From: Neomoorella thermoacetica
GTDB taxonomy: Bacteria; Bacillota; DSM-521; Neomoorellales; Neomoorellaceae
Direction of reading: 5' to 3'
Assembly (NCBI RefSeq): GCF_001267405.1
Contig: NZ_CP012369.1
Location: forward strand, 2,180,402 to 2,212,401
Length of the DNA: 32,000 nucleotides
Part shown: positions 3,384 to 32,000 of the stretch, piece by piece
Numbering within the stretch: the stretch's first letter is position 1
How the letters are laid out: each line of letters opens with the position of its first letter
Program-made: the position numbers and the translations under genes
The notes under the pieces: model-generated
What the model saw: only the letters and a program-made list of their open reading frames with translations
Told to the model about the DNA's origin: nothing
Databases searched by the model: none

Positions 3384-4826
3384 CTATCCCAGGAATACCA
3401 GGGCGATATACTGAGAGATTAGCGTCATAACCACGAGCAACAGGAGTACTATTTTCATTGACAGGGGGAGAGTAATCGCGCCGGCAACTGTCTCTGAAGG
3501 TTTACCCATTACACAGGTACCGAACCACCGCAAAAGCCAGGCAAAACTCCCGACTGACTCAACAACCGCCACCAGGACGAGCAGGAGCACGATGGGATGG
3601 TTTTTCGCCGCCTCAAAGCCGCCTACGAAAATGCTAAACTTGCTAAAGAAGAGGTTAAAAGGCGGCGTTCCTCCAACAGCAAGAGCAGCGGCAGCAAAAC
3701 TAACACCCACCAGCGGCATTTTGCTCAATATCCCGCGCAGCTGAGGTAGCATCCGGGTACCGGTTGTATAGCTGAGGGCCCCTGCCACGAGGAAGAACAG
3801 TCCCTTGGCAAAGGCATGGTTGAAAATGTGGGCCACTGCCCCTTTGTAGGCCATGGACGAACCGAAAACCGAAATGGACAGGGCAAGAAATATATATGAA
3901 AGCTGAGCTATCGTAGAATAGGCCAGCAGTTTTTTCATATCCTGCTGGGGGAAATACATTGCAAAGCCGTACGCCAGGGTAACTATTGCCATAATCCCAC
4001 CGATGTAGCCGATGACCTGGGGTACACTTCCTGCTGATAACAGGGTCCGGGCAAAAATATAGGCCCCGACCTTCACCATTGATGCTGCATGTAAATAGGC
4101 GCTGACAGGTGTAGGTGCAACCATAGCGTCAGGAAGCCATGAATGAAGAGGTAACTGGGCCGACTTGCCCCAGGAGGCAACAAGTATACCCAGGAATACT
4201 ACAACCTTGGCTGTATCCTTCAATCCAGCGAGGGCCGCCAGCTCAAAACTGCCACTGTTAATGAATAAATAGATGGCCGCCACATACAGACCAATAGAAG
4301 CCACGTGGGTTATTATAAGGGCCTTGAGGGCCGCCCGGCGTGCTGCTGATGTGTCATAAAATCCTATCAGACCCCATGAGCAAACACCGGTTAGCTCAAA
4401 AAACACCAGCAGCCCGATTATTGTGGAAGAAAATACCAGCCCCGCCATGGAACCGATAAAGAGCAGCAAAAAAGCGTAATATCTCTTGGTGCCACCGTGA
4501 ACAGGGTGTTCCTTATTGCTGGTGGTCATATACCCCAGGGAATAAACACAGACCAGCAGGCCCATAAAGATTACGGCAAAACCGATCAGGACACTGACCT
4601 TGTCGATTGTAACGCCGAGTACCTGCATGCCGCCAAACTGTAACAACCCCTGGGTGATGCTGGCTCCTCCCGCCCGGGTAAAATCAATCATTAGAAGCAG
4701 GCTACTGGCAAAAGTCAGGAAAGCAAACAGCGGGCTTATTCTCTTTACATAGCTGCCTGGCATGATTACAGCCAAGACGCTTCCCAGTATGGGGATTAAA
4801 ATGCTTGCTACGGCATATTCTACCAT
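3384..4826 (-). CDS. Antiporter-like membrane subunit (NuoM/NuoN/HyfD-HyfF family)
   Basis: 480 aa, polytopic and hydrophobic. Conserved block WLPDAMVAPTPVSAYLHAA is typical of the NuoL/M/N-Mrp family. Size is close to E. coli HyfD. Confidence 0.88.
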   Translation of the reverse strand: MVEYAVASILIPILGSVLAVIMPGSYVKRISPLFAFLTFASSLLLMIDFTRAGGASITQGLLQFGGMQVLGVTIDKVSVLIGFAVIFMGLLVCVYSLGYMTTSNKEHPVHGGTKRYYAFLLLFIGSMAGLVFSSTIIGLLVFFELTGVCSWGLIGFYDTSAARRAALKALIITHVASIGLYVAAIYLFINSGSFELAALAGLKDTAKVVVFLGILVASWGKSAQLPLHSWLPDAMVAPTPVSAYLHAASMVKVGAYIFARTLLSAGSVPQVIGYIGGIMAIVTLAYGFAMYFPQQDMKKLLAYSTIAQLSYIFLALSISVFGSSMAYKGAVAHIFNHAFAKGLFFLVAGALSYTTGTRMLPQLRGILSKMPLVGVSFAAAALAVGGTPPFNLFFSKFSIFVGGFEAAKNHPIVLLLVLVAVVESVGSFAWLLRWFGTCVMGKPSETVAGAITLPLSMKIVLLLLVVMTLISQYIALVFLG

Positions 4827-26749: not shown

Positions 26750-27139
26750 TTACTTATACCTCTTCCGGGGCGGGCGGCAGGCAACCTTGGGGTTTTCCAG
26801 GAGCTGCTGCAGCTTATCGTAGTCGGCAGTAAACTCTTTCTTTTCCGCCAGGGGTACATCCAGGTAGGCCAGCCAGCTCTGAAGGACCGCGGCCAGTTTT
26901 TCTTTTTTCAAGTGGTAAAATACCCACTGGCTCACTTTTTCCTCCCAGACCAGGTCCGCTTCCTTCAGGACCCGCAGGTGCTGGGAGATAGCTGGCTGGG
27001 TGATGCCCAAAATCTCTTCCAGCTCGCAGACGCACAGTTCCTGTTCGGCCAGCAGGGCGATAATCCGCAGCCGCAAATGCTGGCCCAGGGCTTTAAAAGC
27101 CTTTTCCCACTCCTTCAATGTCACCCCCTTCACCTCCAT
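26750..27139 (-). CDS. arsR: ArsR-family arsenite-responsive repressor
   Basis: 129 aa. LRLRIIALLAEQELCVCELEEILGITQPAISQHLRVLKEADLV carries the As(III)-type CVC motif. A GTG at codon 6 follows GGAGGTG and may be the true start. Confidence 0.9.
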   Translation of the reverse strand: MEVKGVTLKEWEKAFKALGQHLRLRIIALLAEQELCVCELEEILGITQPAISQHLRVLKEADLVWEEKVSQWVFYHLKKEKLAAVLQSWLAYLDVPLAEKKEFTADYDKLQQLLENPKVACRPPRKRYK

Positions 27140-27157: not shown

Positions 27158-27185
27158 ATTATATTAAAATTAAAGGCTTTGTCAA
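27158..27185 (-). promoter_or_regulatory. Candidate promoter of arsR-acr3
   Basis: On the minus strand: TTGACA (27185-27180), a 16-nt spacer, then TATAAT (27163-27158). It lies only about 18 nt upstream of the annotated ATG. Confidence 0.5.
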
Positions 27186-27233: not shown

Positions 27234-27262
27234 TTGACACAGGCATTGACCGGTAGTATCAT
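27234..27262 (+). promoter_or_regulatory. Near-consensus sigma-A promoter of the small Cys/His-rich gene
   Basis: TTGACA (27234-27239), a 17-nt spacer, then TATCAT (27257-27262). Confidence 0.65.
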
Positions 27263-27263
27263 G

Positions 27264-27304
27264 TAATTAGCCTATATATGTTAACGACATATATAGGCTA
27301 ATTA
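27264..27304. promoter_or_regulatory. Perfect palindrome with 18-bp arms and a 5-bp spacer at the transcription start (candidate PadR operator)
   Basis: TAATTAGCCTATATATGT-TAACG-ACATATATAGGCTAATTA begins 2 bp after the -10 hexamer. The inner core ATGT...ACAT is the core of known PadR-family operators. Confidence 0.6.
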
Positions 27305-27324
27305 AAAAGGAGGGGAAAAGGAAA

Positions 27325-27537
27325 ATGTGTAGCTCTGCCACTTACAGTCATAACCGTTGCCATGCTTGGGGCCCGCAGGGGGGAGGCTGCTGCCACAATC
27401 ATCACGCCGGCGGCTTCCGCCGCCACTTTTTAACCGCCGCGGAGAAAAAAGACCGGCTGGAAGAGTATCTCAAGGAACTGCAGGCCGAAGTAAAAGCCGT
27501 GGAGGAAAGGCTGAAGGAACTGGGTGAAGGGGCTTAA
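27325..27537 (+). CDS. Small Cys/His-rich protein with C-terminal coiled coil (DUF5320-like)
   Basis: 70 aa. The N-terminus is MCSSATYSHNRCHAWGPQGGGCCHNHHAGG. The C-terminus is AAEKKDRLEEYLKELQAEVKAVEERLKELGE. AGGAGG lies upstream. Confidence 0.7.
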   Translation: MCSSATYSHNRCHAWGPQGGGCCHNHHAGGFRRHFLTAAEKKDRLEEYLKELQAEVKAVEERLKELGEGA

Positions 27538-27944
27538 TACCCCTTCGCCACATCCGTGTCGTGCCCGCTAAAAAGTTTTTCATATCGCGCCAGGAAAGTT
27601 TCCAGGGCGGCTTTATTGCGCCGGATGGTCACCGCCCAGTCATGGAGGTAATCTACCCCTTCCGGGGTTATCTCATACCGGCGCCGGGCCGGTCCCGGGC
27701 CGCCGGTCGACCAGTGGGACCGTACCAGGCCGTCTTCCTCCAGGCGGCGTAAGTTGCGGTAAACAGCCCCGGCATCAGGGACGCCTTCCCATAATCCCAG
27801 CCGGTTCATGCTTTCCATCAGCTCGTAACCGTGGGTGGATTTCTCATAGAGCAGCAACAATAAGCAGGGCTGCAAAAAGCCTTCCATGCGGGCGCCGCGA
27901 CAGTCGCAGCGACTGTGATGCCCGCCGGACCCATGACCGCACAT
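27534..27944 (-). CDS. PadR-family transcriptional regulator with Cys/His-rich N-terminal extension
   Basis: 136 aa. PCLLLLLYEKSTHGYELMESM...GAVYRNLRRLEEDGLV is a PadR winged HTH. It is preceded by MCGHGSGGHHSRCDCRG. GGGAGTG lies 5 nt before the first ATG, which supports translation of the extension. Confidence 0.85.
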   Translation of the reverse strand: MCGHGSGGHHSRCDCRGARMEGFLQPCLLLLLYEKSTHGYELMESMNRLGLWEGVPDAGAVYRNLRRLEEDGLVRSHWSTGGPGPARRRYEITPEGVDYLHDWAVTIRRNKAALETFLARYEKLFSGHDTDVAKGY

Positions 27945-28055
27945 GGGCTCACTCCCTATCTGCTAATTACATATGTGTGTTAATATACAGTAATAGGATA
28001 AACCAATAATTCCATCCCGTCAACAAGACGCTATAACCCCTAAAGGAGAGATGCC

Positions 28056-28538
28056 ATGTTTACCCTGCTTCTTTACCTGCTGGCCTTGAGCGGGCTGTTA
28101 ATTTCTTTCGGGAAAGACCGGCATAAAACCCGGCTGGCTTTAATCAAGGGGTGGAAGGCCTTTACCAACATCTTGCCTGACTTTGCTGTCGTCCTGGCCT
28201 TGATAGGGATTATGTTGACCCACCTGTCACCTCATACCATTGCCGCCCTGGTGGGCAAAAACAGCGGCTTCCCGGGCATGCTGGCAAGCTCCATAGTTGG
28301 CTCCATCACCCTCATACCCGGTTTTGTTGCCTTCCCCTTGGCCAAATCCCTGTTGGACCGAGGGGCAGGTATCATGCAAATGGCCGTCTTTGTTTCGACC
28401 CTGATGATGGTGGGGGTTGTAACCGCTCCCCTGGAAAGCAGGTATTTCGGTAAAAAAGAAACTATCCTCCGCAATTCTTTGAGCTATGTATTTTCCTTTA
28501 TCGTGGCTATTATCATCGGGATGGTGGTGGGAGCGTGA
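28056..28538 (+). CDS. Split DUF318-type permease, N-terminal-half subunit
   Basis: 160 aa, hydrophobic. Aligns by eye to the N-half of the 15011..15964 permease (SIVGSITLIPGFVAFPL against GIVTPFCSCSAVPVFIGF), but without the Cys pair. Confidence 0.8.
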   Translation: MFTLLLYLLALSGLLISFGKDRHKTRLALIKGWKAFTNILPDFAVVLALIGIMLTHLSPHTIAALVGKNSGFPGMLASSIVGSITLIPGFVAFPLAKSLLDRGAGIMQMAVFVSTLMMVGVVTAPLESRYFGKKETILRNSLSYVFSFIVAIIIGMVVGA

Positions 28539-29077
28539 ACTTACTTAACTTAATTAAGACTTACCATTACTTTTTACTAATTATCTTCTTTGATGTGGTA
28601 ATAACCGTCTTTTATCCCGGCACAGGCTTAGCAATTTTTAAATACACCGCCGGTAACTTTGCCGAAATGCTCTCCATTATCCCGCCGATTTTTCTTCTCC
28701 TGGGCCTCTTAGATGTCTGGGTACCGCGGGAAACGATTATCCGCTACTTGGGTGAAGGATCCGGCTTAGAGGGCATTGTCCTAAGCATAGTACTGGGGGC
28801 GGCCGCCGCCGGGCCACTCTACGGCGCCTTCCCGGTGGCCGCCGTCATGGCGAAGAAAGGCACCAAATACAGCAACATTATTATTTTCCTCTGTTCCTGG
28901 TCGACTTTAAAAATCCCCATGTTCCTGTTTGAAATGTCAGCCCTGGGCATAAAGTTCGCCCTAACCCGCTGGCTGGTCAATATCCCCGGGATACTGGCGA
29001 TTGCTTATATTATCGACCGCCTCATCGGAGAGGAAAACAAAGCGGAATTCTACCGGCGGCAGATGGCAAATCTATAA
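28535..29077 (+). CDS. Split DUF318-type permease, C-terminal-half subunit
   Basis: 180 aa with a GTGA overlap with the preceding ORF. RETIIRYLGEGSGLEGIVLSIVLGAAAAGPLYGAFPVAAVMAKKG parallels ETLLLRYAGPGNLLAVPVAVAIGVPLYSNAAGTIPIVQALMEKG in the full-length paralog. Confidence 0.8.
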   Translation: MNLLNLIKTYHYFLLIIFFDVVITVFYPGTGLAIFKYTAGNFAEMLSIIPPIFLLLGLLDVWVPRETIIRYLGEGSGLEGIVLSIVLGAAAAGPLYGAFPVAAVMAKKGTKYSNIIIFLCSWSTLKIPMFLFEMSALGIKFALTRWLVNIPGILAIAYIIDRLIGEENKAEFYRRQMANL

Positions 29078-29081
29078 CGGC

Positions 29082-29597
29082 TTACCCCAGCATCCCCTGC
29101 AGGGCGTTGAAGCGTTCACTATTTTCCTCCTCCGCCAGGGGCGGGCAATCCGCCAGAGTGTTTTCACCGCTCAGCAATCTGGCGGCAAAAGCCAGGCAGG
29201 TCAACTGGCCGCATCGGCGGCAGTTAGTCCCGGGCAGCCATTTGTATATTTTGAGCGCTGTGGGCCTATCCTTTTTGGCGAAGGAAGGCTGGATTTCCTT
29301 TTGCCGCCGGTGGGTATCGTTGATTAAATCCTTGAGCCAATCCAGCACCTGGAGGGCGTCCGTCATATTGACCGCTTTGGCCATGGTAAGCTTGCGGGGG
29401 TAAAGGGTAATTAAGCGGAATTCTTTCAAAAAGGTCAAGTTTTTAGTGTAATGGTTATATACGGCATTTTTAATCACGGTATTGAGGTAAGGTAATAACT
29501 CCTCAATATCCTGGCTCAAAACCGCCTGCAGGCGGATCTTTTCCGCATCGGCCAGGCAGGTTTCCACTTTGGTGACGTCAATCATTTCCAGAAACAC
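29082..29597 (-). CDS. Fe-S-binding protein with a C-terminal PF04060-type domain (RnfB/AcsC N-terminal-like) and an unknown N-domain
   Basis: 171 aa. YKWLPGTNCRRCGQLTCLAFAARLLSGENTLADCPPL matches the LPxTNCGxCGxxTCxAFA...C motif. GTG start lies 8 nt after GGGAGG. Confidence 0.75.
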   Translation of the reverse strand: MFLEMIDVTKVETCLADAEKIRLQAVLSQDIEELLPYLNTVIKNAVYNHYTKNLTFLKEFRLITLYPRKLTMAKAVNMTDALQVLDWLKDLINDTHRRQKEIQPSFAKKDRPTALKIYKWLPGTNCRRCGQLTCLAFAARLLSGENTLADCPPLAEEENSERFNALQGMLG

Positions 29598-29695
29598 GGG
29601 TGCCGCCTCCCATATTTCTAATATTGCCTAAATCCTGCACCATAAGAAATGGAAAGAAATGCTCGGGCCTTATGATAACAAGTACTCTCAATACT

Positions 29696-30847
29696 TCAGC
29701 TTGTTAATTCTACAATTTCCCTTACCGCCGTTAAAAAGGCGTCTATCTCTTCCGTGGTATTAAAATAACTTACGCTGGCCCGCACCGTTCCCCGCTCCAG
29801 AGTGCTTATGGTTTTATGGGCCAGAGGCGCGCAGTGCAGGCCCACCCGGACCATAATTTCGTGGCCCTCGTCCAGGGCGTAGGCTACCTCTTCCGGGGCC
29901 AGTTCTTTAATGTTAAAGGAAACCACGCCCACCTTGGGTGCCGTTTCCCTCGGACCATAGACGGTCACCGCAGGTAACTCTTCCAGCCCGGCCAGCATCC
30001 TGGCCGTCAGAACCTCCTCGTGGGAACGGATCCGGCTGATCCCCTGGTTGAGGACATATTCCACAGCGGCTTTAAGGCCGGCAATGCCGACAACATTCAG
30101 CGTCCCGGCCTCGAAGCGATCCGGCAGGCCCTCAGGCATGTACTCCAGGCGGGACACCGAACCGGTACCCCCTTCCTTCAGGGGACGCAGATCGAAACCG
30201 GGACGTATATAGAGGCCGCCGGTACCCATGGGTCCGAGCAGGCCTTTGTGACCGGTAAAGGCCAGGAAATCGATATCCAGTTCCTGGACATCTATGGGAT
30301 ATACTCCGGCTGTCTGGGCGGTGTCCAGCAGGACAGGCACCTCGTGCCGGTGGGCTGCGGCAGTAATTGCCTGCACCGGCATCACCGTTCCCGTAACATT
30401 GGAGGCATGGGTGCAGGCCAGCAGGCGCGTTTCCTTACGGAAGGCCGCATCCAGCTCTGGCAGTAGCAGTTCGCCGTCTTCCCGGCAGGGCACCACGGTA
30501 ATGCTTATCCCGCGCTCCTTCTCCAGGGTTTTCAAACAGCGCCAGACGGCATTATGTTCCATAGCCGTAGTAATGACATGATCGCCGGGGTTCAACCAGC
30601 CCTTGAGGGCCAGGTTGATGGCCTCAGTGGCATTGGCGGTAAAAACGATGCGGGTGGCGTCATTAATGTTAAATAACTTCCCCAGTAGCCGCCGGCACTG
30701 GAAGACTATCTCTTCCGCCGCCAGGGCGCGTCGGTAGCCGCCCCTGCCGGCGCTGGCTCCTATATTCTTCATAAAATGCTCCATGGCCTGCCAGACCGCC
30801 GGCGGCTTGGGAAAGGTAGTGGCGGCGTTATCCAGGTAAATGGCCAC
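29696..30847 (-). CDS. Class V aminotransferase-fold PLP enzyme (cysteine desulfurase / selenocysteine lyase-like)
   Basis: 383 aa. The PLP-lysine context is FTGHKGLLGPMGTGGLYI and the active-site Cys context is RVGLHCAP. GTG start follows GGGGTG. Confidence 0.88.
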   Translation of the reverse strand: MAIYLDNAATTFPKPPAVWQAMEHFMKNIGASAGRGGYRRALAAEEIVFQCRRLLGKLFNINDATRIVFTANATEAINLALKGWLNPGDHVITTAMEHNAVWRCLKTLEKERGISITVVPCREDGELLLPELDAAFRKETRLLACTHASNVTGTVMPVQAITAAAHRHEVPVLLDTAQTAGVYPIDVQELDIDFLAFTGHKGLLGPMGTGGLYIRPGFDLRPLKEGGTGSVSRLEYMPEGLPDRFEAGTLNVVGIAGLKAAVEYVLNQGISRIRSHEEVLTARMLAGLEELPAVTVYGPRETAPKVGVVSFNIKELAPEEVAYALDEGHEIMVRVGLHCAPLAHKTISTLERGTVRASVSYFNTTEEIDAFLTAVREIVELTS

Positions 30848-30950
30848 TATTTACACCCCCTACCAGGGCATTCTTATTCGGCCTCAACTTTTTTCCGGAA
30901 TCTGATAAGGGGGGGATAACTTACTATCCTCCCTGTCCGACCCCGGACAA

Positions 30951-31283
30951 CTAAGCAAGAATATTTCCTACTTCTTTTATTATCTCCTCGCAGGGAATAT
31001 CACCGGCATAGCGGGGCGTGCCGTCGACCACCACCAGGGGCGCCGGGTAAGGGCCGTTAGTAAGGGCCCGCAGCTCTGACGGCACCTGATCCCGGGGTAC
31101 TGCCCGGAGGTCGATGTAAACAGCCTCCGCCTGCCCGGCGAACTTTTCCTCAAGCTGCTGCTGCAACTCGCCAACCTGCTTTTTAATCGCCGCCGTGGTC
31201 ATGGCCGCACCGCCGCCACAACCGCAACCGCAGCCACCCCCGCTACTCGGGTAATCATAAATCTCCACCTTAACTTTAGCCAT
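30951..31283 (-). CDS. Small thioredoxin-fold-like protein (ArsD/YuzD-like layout) with GGGCGCGCGGG motif
   Basis: 110 aa. KVKVEIYDYPSSGGGCGCGCGGGA ... AVYIDL ... PLVVVDGTPRYAGDIP has the beta-Cys loop-helix ... VDG layout of ArsD/YuzD-type proteins. GGAGGA lies 7 nt before the ATG, which is 3 nt after the upstream stop. Confidence 0.65.
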   Translation of the reverse strand: MAKVKVEIYDYPSSGGGCGCGCGGGAAMTTAAIKKQVGELQQQLEEKFAGQAEAVYIDLRAVPRDQVPSELRALTNGPYPAPLVVVDGTPRYAGDIPCEEIIKEVGNILA

Positions 31284-31286
31284 TGT

Positions 31287-31706
31287 TTACTCCTCCCGGT
31301 TAATTTTATCGACTTGCTCCAAGATAGCTGCCGCCACCTGGTCGACCATGGCTTTTTGCTCCGCTGTAAGCTCCCCGGTAGATAACGTCCCCTCGCCGAG
31401 CTTTTCCCCGGCACTGAAGTCCGTAACCACCACCTTGCCGCTTACCGGCCCGCTCAGGGCTTCGGTGGCCTTTAAAGCGCAACATTTTTCGCACCCGTCG
31501 ATGGTTATCGTGGGATAATCACGGGCGAAGTTGCGCTCTTCCTCGCCACCGGCCATAAACAGAGGCAGGCAAATAGTTACGAAATTATAGCCCGGCCTGA
31601 TGGACCGCAGCACCTTCTGGGTGGCCAGGCGGGAAATGGTCCCCCCGGGGCAGGCCTCGCCGCTGCAGGAAATCAGGCCGATGGATAATTTTCCTTCTTC
31701 ACTCAT
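31287..31706 (-). CDS. DGC-domain protein (putative zinc/metal-binding, PF08859-like)
   Basis: 139 aa. Contains SCSGEAC ... TICLP ... ITIDGCEKCCA (the DGC motif). GGAGGAG ribosome-binding site. Confidence 0.8.
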   Translation of the reverse strand: MSEEGKLSIGLISCSGEACPGGTISRLATQKVLRSIRPGYNFVTICLPLFMAGGEEERNFARDYPTITIDGCEKCCALKATEALSGPVSGKVVVTDFSAGEKLGEGTLSTGELTAEQKAMVDQVAAAILEQVDKINREE

Positions 31707-31729
31707 GCTTTCTCCTCCCCAACAGGCGT

Positions 31730-32000
31730 TTATTGCTCCTCTCCGGCGTCATACCAGCGATCGACTTTACCGGCCAGGTCGGCAGCCAGCTCGTCGGCAA
31801 TCTGCCACCCTGCCGCCGTCAGATGGGCGGCCGTGCCGGCATCGACGCCCCGGTGGTTGCGAAAAGCGTCCACGGCGCGGATCATTTCCACCACCCGGCC
31901 GCCGGCGTGCTCGACATTCTTGGCCGCGCAGAGCTTCGGGCAGCCGTCCACGGTAATGCACCTGGCGCCGGCGATCTCCTTCCTGGCCTCATTGTCGCCA
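31730..32000 (-). CDS. Second DGC-domain protein (5' end outside window)
   Basis: The frame stays open to the window edge: ...GDNEARKEIAGARCITVDGCPKLCAAKNVEHAGGRVVEMI... The track's 'M' at 31951 is an internal GTG. Confidence 0.7.
   Translation of the reverse strand, partial: GDNEARKEIAGARCITVDGCPKLCAAKNVEHAGGRVVEMIRAVDAFRNHRGVDAGTAAHLTAAGWQIADELAADLAGKVDRWYDAGEEQ

Follow-up and report, generated by a model that had tools for sequence, protein, structure and literature searches.

What does a perfect 41-bp palindrome do when it sits between the promoter and the ribosome-binding site of a very small bacterial gene, with a gene for a PadR-family regulator close by? The palindrome in question lies in a stretch of 32,000 nucleotides of Neomoorella thermoacetica DNA (contig NZ_CP012369.1, positions 2,180,402 to 2,212,401 of the forward strand), which we call the window and within which all our coordinates are counted. 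Downstream of the palindrome come a 70-residue open reading frame (ORF), the small gene, and, convergent with it, padR; the two proteins both begin with Cys/His-rich extensions. Our answer comes from comparing sequences and has two parts. The core of the palindrome is almost certainly the operator of the clade to which this PadR belongs, and not an ArsR site. The locus as a whole is probably, with ample room for doubt, a self-contained sensor-response module made up of a metal(loid)-responsive PadR repressor, a metal-binding helper and an exporter.

A palindrome beside two genes

The elements that matter for the argument are these.

27234-27262, + strand: small-gene promoter, TTGACA-17-TATCAT, found by consensus scan (11 of 12 positions)
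27264-27304, no strand: 41-bp palindrome, 18-5-18, with arms at 27264-27281 and 27287-27304
27275-27293, inside the palindrome: putative core operator, TATATGT-TAACG-ACATATA
Flanking the core: outer palindrome arms, TAATTAGCC/GGCTAATTA, specific to Moorella
27308-27315, + strand: small-gene Shine-Dalgarno sequence, AGGAGGGG, read from the sequence and kept in orthologs
27325-27537, + strand: small gene, 70 residues, N terminus MCSSATYSHNRCHAWGPQGGGCCHNHH
27534-27537: overlapping stop codons of the small gene and padR, shared TTAA
27534-27944, - strand: padR, 136 residues, N terminus MCGHGSGGHHSRCDCRG
27957-27975, in the padR 5' untranslated region (UTR), directly before the padR Shine-Dalgarno sequence: degenerate operator-like site, CATATGT-AATTA-GCAGATA on the padR strand
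27995-28023, - strand: padR promoter, TTGACG-17-TATCCT, from the consensus scan (9 of 12) and kept in orthologs
26750-27139, - strand: arsR, part of an arsR-acr3 unit divergent from the small gene

A preliminary description of this DNA had given the genes, their N-terminal tags, the stop overlap, the promoter and the palindrome, and all were found at those coordinates. It had the convergent genes ending on the same TTAA, and both stops are indeed read within 27534-27537. The promoter before the small gene is as close to consensus as it had said, and the inverted repeat is perfect, with 18 of 18 arm positions complementary around a 5-nt center.

A probable operator for the PadR clade

The first thing to ask of a candidate operator is where else it occurs. 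With at most one mismatch, the 19-bp core is found once in the 2.53-Mb genome. Across 84 genomic loci, TATATGT-N5-ACATATA with at most two mismatches gives 43 matches in 38 kb of windows upstream of padR or the small gene versus 7 in the other 676 kb, an enrichment of about 100-fold. The consensus of 36 unique sites is TATATG(T/C/A)-N5-ACATATA, often abutting GGAGG, with the 5-nt spacing constant. A test independent of the loci fetched through PadR used exact sites in 28 related Moorellia genomes: there were 18, in 14 genomes, and 15 of the 18 lay within 700 bp of a gene of the PadR clade. Within the Moorellaceae, the genomes with an exact site are the genomes with the PadR clade (13 of 22 each, same genera).

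Position tells the same story. The palindrome is kept at the orthologous place in eight loci of the Moorella clade, between the -10 box and the small-gene Shine-Dalgarno sequence, even where the flanking gene is not arsR, and the core is present in distant phyla as far as an Anaerolineae metagenome-assembled genome (MAG). At loci that lack the small gene, the core immediately precedes padR-permease operons (L009/L035, L012/L104 and many more), and it persists where arsR is absent and padR is the sole regulator present (the same two examples). That the core tracks the PadR clade, is single copy and is enriched upstream of these genes argues for an autoregulatory PadR operator about as strongly as comparison of sequences can. 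The preliminary description had seen the PadR-family half-sites in it, and in these comparative tests the core behaves as the operator of the clade.

Could the palindrome instead serve the divergent arsR? It does lie in the arsR/small-gene intergenic region, and TAATTA-rich motifs occur in all three promoter regions. Yet the arsR promoter, at 27158-27185, is some 80 bp away and points in the opposite direction. In N. stamsii, M. mulderi and a Clostridia MAG the small gene is preceded by the same palindrome, with a gene for a MOT1-type transporter, and not arsR, on its flank; the palindrome also precedes padR-permease operons with no arsR nearby. The site follows PadR and is present without an adjacent arsR, and synteny thus effectively refutes an ArsR operator; we give that idea next to no credence.

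Inverted repeats of ATGT/ACAT set 8-10 nt apart are reported for LmrR-type and classical PadRs, and the operator of Bacillus subtilis PadR is CNTGNA-N6-TNCANG. Here the arrangement is ATGT-N5-ACAT, which does not match the family spacing. The preliminary description had remarked on 5 nt in place of the common 8; the 5 nt is borne out, with the literature spacing being 8-10 nt.

Two exact core sites in other genomes (G005:C3:5669-5687 and G016:C33:148101-148119) have no adjoining PadR-clade gene that we detected; they may be extra regulon members or reflect assembly gaps. Within the window, the only further copies are the site in the padR 5' UTR and a probable chance match at 4270; none was found before the permease pair, the Cys-rich gene string (both described below) or arsR. 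An origin of the palindrome in a repeat or mobile element we rejected, since it is single copy and sits at an orthologous position.

Long arms and leaders in Moorella

The outer arms are a different matter from the core. Only the Moorella clade has arms of 15-18 bp; elsewhere they are 7-10 A/T-rich bp. In an alignment of eight Moorella sequences none of the inner 8 pairs varies, and both sides have changed at 7 of the 18 pairs (GCCTA/TAGGC, GCTTA/TAAGC and GCCCA/TGGGC, for example). Paired cells make up 89.5% of the alignment versus 84% in shuffles, with 1 of 500 shuffles as high. The predicted transcription start of the small gene falls inside the left arm, and RNA from 27268 is predicted to form a 15-bp hairpin (-19.4 kcal/mol, z-score -6.3). 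Perhaps, then, the palindrome is mainly an RNA element, a 5'-terminal stem-loop that stabilizes the small-gene mRNA or gates its ribosome-binding site, with protein binding secondary or absent. Start site, hairpin and covariation all speak for this, but we think it quite unlikely. From Bacillota to the Anaerolineae MAG the inner 7-8 bp are kept as sequence and not just as pairing, and the short A/T-rich arms outside Moorella are too weak for a conserved structure. The core holds the ATGT/ACAT of the PadR family and tracks PadR genome-wide. Besides, template-switch mutation can produce perfect symmetry without structural selection. A hairpin role added to that of a PadR operator is another proposition: because the outer arms covary, the Moorella element may double as a 5'-terminal hairpin in the small-gene mRNA, though template switching could also maintain the symmetry of the arms without selection.

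The promoters and leaders have their own patterns of conservation. Eight orthologs of the Moorella clade share the small-gene -35 box, and part of its -10 box, without variation, and the match to consensus is 11 of 12 positions here versus 9 of 12 for padR. The site in the padR 5' UTR differs from the core at three positions and falls within the part of the padR leader that is conserved best; six Moorella orthologs share ACATATGTAA.T..CAGATAGG there without change, and copies with two mismatches occupy the same place in three orthologs. No terminator was found between the convergent small gene and padR. With the genes convergent, their stops overlapping and no terminator between them, transcription of a derepressed small gene would run antisense through padR and may reinforce induction. 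The window does hold a terminator-like hairpin at 27408-27432 (+), GGCGG-CTTC-CGCC followed by ACTTTTTAA, inside the small-gene coding region where tail and helix meet; it could be there by chance or serve as an attenuating pause.

A short PadR with a three-cysteine arm

Is the 136-residue protein really a PadR? Its match to Pfam PF03551, over residues 28-101, has an E-value of 8.5e-17 and scores 61.4 bits where 27 is the cut-off. An AlphaFold2 model built on 38 homologs has helices at 21-34, 39-49 and 58-70, wing strands at 74-79 and 87-92, and a single C-terminal helix at 94-129, with predicted local distance difference test (pLDDT) values of 80-98 in the core and residues 1-18 disordered. 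As modeled, this is the architecture of subfamily 2 (PadR-s2), a winged helix-turn-helix followed by one long C-terminal helix, and the ordinary PadR fold of the preliminary description stands. The nearest NCBIfam model, a PhaQ-type repressor, scores well under its cut-off. By sequence, the closest solved relative is T. maritima TM0937 (PDB 2esh, 7.7e-20), followed by other short PadRs.

Among the 38 diverse homologs Y40, Y62, R63 and R66 are invariant and R88 nearly so. Judged by place, Y40 (start of helix 2), Y62 (recognition helix) and R88 (wing) are where one would look for the DNA-binding residues of the PadR family, two conserved tyrosines and a basic residue (PMC5728393), and they may correspond to them.

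What sets the protein apart is its first 18 residues. This arm has Cys2, Cys13 and Cys15 together with His4, His9 and His10, and a further cysteine, Cys27, lies in helix 1. The pattern is M-C, a variable and often His-rich linker (with His runs of up to eight), then C-x-C, 5-8 residues ahead of helix 1. It is typical of the clade: most of 101 database homologs carry it, as do most of the 84 loci, and it is present at 70 of the 77 loci that could be anchored. Across the 38 homologs C2 and C15 are nearly invariant, and P26-C27 is invariant. Cys27 is probably structural, because it is invariant in untagged relatives as well. Some homologs that seem to lack the arm begin exactly at an internal methionine and look like start-codon miscalls; a sister group in the Syntrophomonadaceae is genuinely untagged, and it has neither the partner gene nor the operator. 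The preliminary description had named conservation of the tags as one point on which its reading depended, and both tags are conserved family-wide.

The main home of the clade is the anaerobic Bacillota, but some of its members come from Bacteroidota, Chloroflexota and Deltaproteobacteria; its hosts are all strict anaerobes. One outlier is the Anaerolineae MAG (L011). Its PadR arm is Cys-free and rich in His and Arg, and the helix-1 QPC is replaced by QPR; the tail of its small protein, in the part that is likely real, is also Cys-free and His/Arg-rich, and a perfect TATATGT-N5-ACATATA is retained upstream. M. mulderi (L030:1292-1654) and N. sulfitireducens (L031:2387-2749) have, within 3 kb of the module, another PadR paralog, which is unrelated to this one and has a CCTP motif behind helix 2.

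The small protein and its links to padR

The product of the small gene has three parts: a disordered Cys/His-rich tail (residues 1 to about 30), an FxRxF motif and a leucine-zipper helix (38-68). In the AlphaFold2 model pLDDT exceeds 90 over the helix and is below 50 for residues 1-23, and a 4-3 hydrophobic repeat can be read from the sequence at L45, L49, L52, V56, V59, L63 and L66. Aligned, the family has a hypervariable Cys/His/Gly-rich N terminus that begins M-C and closes with a CC, CCC or CxC cluster; after it come FxRxF(L)TxxE, a conserved motif, and a zipper, LEEYLKELQAExKAVEE, that hardly varies. A profile search over 1.84 billion representatives returned 1120 representative clusters at E <=1e-3 and 182 at <=1e-10.

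The preliminary description had pointed to DUF5320, and the resemblance is there, in part. Close homologs carry the DUF5320 label in NCBI and UniRef. Against Pfam DUF5320 (PF17253) the 70-residue protein, at 16.7 bits, falls short of the 27 that the cut-off asks for. Of 25 family members, 19 match, with E <=0.05 (best 4e-5), and they match only the C-terminal half of the profile (about 49-99). The Gly-rich, GDGTGP-type N-terminal half of DUF5320 was not found in the small protein, which has its Cys/His-rich tail in that place. A canonical DUF5320 protein is encoded elsewhere in the same genome (contig positions 1351182-1354517; 86.5 bits when the genome was searched and 87.2 with hmmscan; sequence MPRGDRTGPWGLGP...). 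It has the usual GDxTGP Gly-rich N terminus and its gene is directly upstream of two NifX-like Nitro_FeMo-Co genes, with no padR beside it. One of these NifX-like neighbors ends in a CSHDHEGHEGCEH tail. Because the match is to the C-terminal half only, the score is under cut-off and the canonical paralog differs, we regard the small protein as a divergent relative of DUF5320 and not as a typical member.

How tightly are the two genes bound to each other? A hidden Markov model (HMM) of the small family, run over a few kb around the PadR genes at the 77 anchorable loci, places a small gene near 32 of 70 tagged padR genes and near none of 7 untagged ones, which answers a question of co-occurrence raised in the preliminary description. 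The arrangement varies. In Moorella the genes are convergent with overlapping stops. Peptococcaceae, Syntrophaceticus, Thermacetogenium, Desulfoscipio and Dethiobacteria have padR>small operons, some of them with overlapping genes, and Desulfofundulus and Desulfovirgula have the order small>permease>permease>padR. Some Moorella genomes hold two copies of padR, small gene and operator (M. naiadis, and also G007 and G010); in the second M. naiadis copy (L032 = L006, contig 15) the small gene is divergent from padR and a CDF gene lies downstream of padR. Linkage that persists through this much rearrangement argues for a shared function.

That function might be regulatory. The small protein could be a co-repressor or anti-repressor that docks on PadR, perhaps at a shared metal site, and not a buffer or chaperone. 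The two tails are built alike, opening with M-C, running through a variable linker of His and Gly and closing with a Cys cluster beside a helix. Their genes lie in tight linkage, in some cases overlapping or coupled in translation. There is also a weak alignment of the small-protein profile to the tail and RRQRFF segment of NfeR, a tailed PadR of Escherichia coli to which we return below. But 38 of the 70 tagged PadRs have no small gene nearby, from which it follows that PadR works without the small protein; the composition of the two tails does not covary; and the hhalign match to NfeR spans 27 columns at 17% probability, which is suggestive and not evidence. A docking partner of this kind seems to us rather improbable, and we prefer the metal-binding helper.

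The permease, its neighbors and the ligand

If PadR is a repressor, what does it hold in check, and what sets it free? The nearest candidates are on the far side of padR.

28056-29077, + strand: split ArsP_1-type permease pair, 160 and 180 residues, divergent from padR; the ORFs overlap at 28535-28538
29082-31999, after the permease pair: string of Cys-rich DGC/Fe-S genes

The two permease halves match Pfam PF03773 at 1.7e-5 and 1.5e-11. Homologous split pairs are the commonest neighbor in the clade (41 of 84 loci) and are usually co-operonic, in the orders padR>perm>perm or small>perm>perm>padR. In the window, the region upstream of the permease pair overlaps the padR promoter. That PadR controls the permease in Moorella may be supposed solely from other taxa, in which padR and the permeases form one operon behind the operator. 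The preliminary description had proposed that PadR may govern both the permease and the Cys-rich cluster: the first half stands by synteny elsewhere only, and the second finds no support, with no operator found before the DGC/Fe-S string. Genes for DGC-domain and PF04060 Fe-S-domain proteins also adjoin the module in Desulfofundulus, Peptococcaceae, a Moorellales MAG and Desulfovirgula (L038, L065, L086, L097), so that this adjacency is not confined to Moorella.

Other neighbors bear on the ligand. ACR3 occurs at 13 of the 84 loci and ArsR at 11; they recur at seven loci outside Moorella, by a rough estimate far above chance. CDF, ChrA, MOT1-type, TauE and MFS transporters are also among the neighbors. 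As for the arm itself, an N-terminal cysteine beside a CxC resembles the high-affinity nickel site of HypB. A soft metal or metalloid is the most likely ligand: As(III)/Sb(III), Zn/Cd, Ni/Co or Cu(I). The ligand can be narrowed only that far because thiolates, His linkers and neighbors suit different ions.

Alternatively, the cysteines might serve thiol chemistry. The arm would then sense redox state, persulfide or oxidants, or hold an Fe-S cluster or a structural Zn-thiolate switch, and the chemistry of the thiols would release the repressor. There are four cysteines per monomer if the invariant Cys27 is counted, the hosts are the strict anaerobes noted above, and the neighbors at several loci are of a fitting kind (CoA-disulfide reductase-rhodanese, TauE, hybrid-cluster protein, cysteine desulfurase, DGC and Fe-S-domain proteins). 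Against this, variable linkers rich in His and Gly, some with as many as eight His in a row, belong typically to metal tails rather than thiol switches. The permease is the commonest cargo, with ACR3, ArsR, CDF and ChrA recurring nearby, and Cys27 is probably structural. Moreover NfeR, the characterized tailed PadR, is reported to respond to nickel. On balance we consider a thiol sensor unlikely, and a metal(loid) sensor the better account of the arm.

Some features of the neighboring arsR deserve mention for their own sake. Its promoter matches consensus at 12 of 12 positions (TTGACA-16-TATAAT, 27185-27158, - strand). Its start is probably the GTG at 27124, with a GGAGG 7 nt upstream, and not the ATG at 27139, ahead of which there is no ribosome-binding site; the frame of the N. 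carbonis ortholog begins at the corresponding V-T-L-K. The A/T-rich TAATTAATTA after the arsR -10 box may be an ArsR operator.

How the module might work

Put together, the pieces suggest the following. A PadR-s2 dimer would bind TATATGT-N5-ACATATA, which in the small gene comes after the -10 box and ahead of the ribosome-binding site and of which the padR 5' UTR has a weaker copy, and would thereby repress transcription. The flexible arm, through Cys2, Cys13-x-Cys15 and flanking histidines, would capture a thiophilic ligand, which would order the arm against the DNA-binding domain and release the repressor, as described for the NfeR tail and for the N-terminal arms of CadC-type ArsR proteins. 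Once derepressed, the small protein could oligomerize through its leucine zipper and present two or three Cys/His tails that buffer the same ligand or hand it over, and the split ArsP_1-type permease would export it.

Several observations weigh against this scheme. Most of the 84 loci were fetched with a PadR query, so the association of site and PadR is partly there by construction, and the whole-genome test of the site spans 28 related genomes only. Compared with the solved B. subtilis PadR-DNA complex, the spacing of the ATGT/ACAT elements, and of their TG/CA dinucleotides, is tighter by 3 bp; taken as 7-bp half-sites, however, the arms are again 12 bp apart center to center, and for that reason one PadR dimer could still fit, with other base contacts. 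The site in the padR 5' UTR is not significant on its own (3 matches observed versus 0.71 expected in the window). No recognizable sigma-70-like promoter or operator was found before the permease pair in the window. His content does not covary between the PadR arm and the small-protein tail (34 pairs, rho -0.01), and for Cys content rho is 0.25 over the same number of pairs, which is not significant. Finally, the chemistry of the arm is two-sided: three thiolates suit As(III)/Sb(III), while His linkers and CDF neighbors suit Zn/Cd/Ni/Co.

A bolder version makes PadR and the DUF5320-like protein a two-protein metalloregulator. The zipper protein would complete a shared metal site with the PadR tail and act as a metal-dependent anti- or co-repressor, and in Moorella the convergent, terminator-less gene pair and the hairpin operator would add antisense positive feedback, making the response switch-like. 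We regard this as a long shot. If it were true, PadR plus DUF5320 would be a new class of metal(loid) sensor and the first function assigned to a DUF5320-type protein.

Even the plainer scheme of repressor, helper and exporter has consequences. The work defines a large clade of short PadRs with a three-Cys arm, unusual operator spacing, a recurrent small zipper partner and a recurrent split permease. With the ligand identified, acetogens and sulfate reducers would have a new system of metal(loid) resistance or homeostasis to their name, there would be a compact repressor-operator pair for biosensors in thermophilic anaerobes, and we would have a first handle on what DUF5320-type proteins do.

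Relation to known systems

How much of this is new? A search of the literature found no paper on a Cys-tailed PadR with a DUF5320 partner or split permease, and DUF5320 turned up in two papers only, both times in passing. A 2024 review of bacterial metal sensing does not mention PadR in its first half (300,000 of 606,000 characters). NfeR was the only tailed, metal-responsive PadR found documented in the literature searched.

NfeR (YqjI) of E. coli has the same plan, a PadR winged helix-turn-helix behind a Cys/His-rich N-terminal extension. The protein from MG1655 scores 56.6 bits as a PadR, and its extension is 66 residues long with 9 Cys and 14 His. According to the published account, NfeR represses nfeF (yqjH), excess nickel relieves the repression, and the gene is autoregulated (PMC7981267). 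The two are not orthologs: identity is 25% and limited to the winged helix-turn-helix, and NfeR has 207 residues and a long C-terminal domain, compared with 136 here. Its 66-residue tail is made of CC/His repeats, whereas the Moorella arm is 18 residues of M-C...C-x-C with three Cys and three His. The cargo of NfeR is a ferric reductase and not a permease, it has no DUF5320-like partner, and the operators differ. The preliminary description had suggested that the Cys/His-tagged PadR is a metal- or redox-sensing variant; a tailed, metal-sensing PadR is less of a novelty than this implied, NfeR being by that account already a nickel-responsive one.

The scaffold has close company in the PadR-s2 repressors (LmrR of L. 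lactis, bcPadR1 and bcPadR2 of B. cereus, TM0937 of T. maritima), which share its size class and fold. They too are autoregulated, repress adjacent exporter genes and use an ATGT/ACAT inverted repeat. They differ in lacking the Cys/His arm, in binding drug or peptide ligands at the dimer interface, and in having 8-10 nt between half-sites where the Moorella operator has 5. With Pfam DUF5320 the small protein has the C-terminal coiled-coil half in common, whereas the Gly-rich N-terminal half belongs to canonical members only.

In its logic the module recalls older acquaintances. The copY-copZ-copA and arsR-arsD-arsA/B systems each join a repressor, a metallochaperone and an exporter, and CooJ is a coiled-coil nickel chaperone with a His tail. 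The proposed scheme is alike (a thiolate-sensing repressor, a small metal-binding helper, efflux), although the protein families are unrelated and the roles here are putative. The known kind to which the locus belongs is thus the tailed, metal-responsive PadR. Its new features are a short PadR-s2 scaffold, an M-C...C-x-C arm, a 5-nt operator, a DUF5320-like partner and a split permease.

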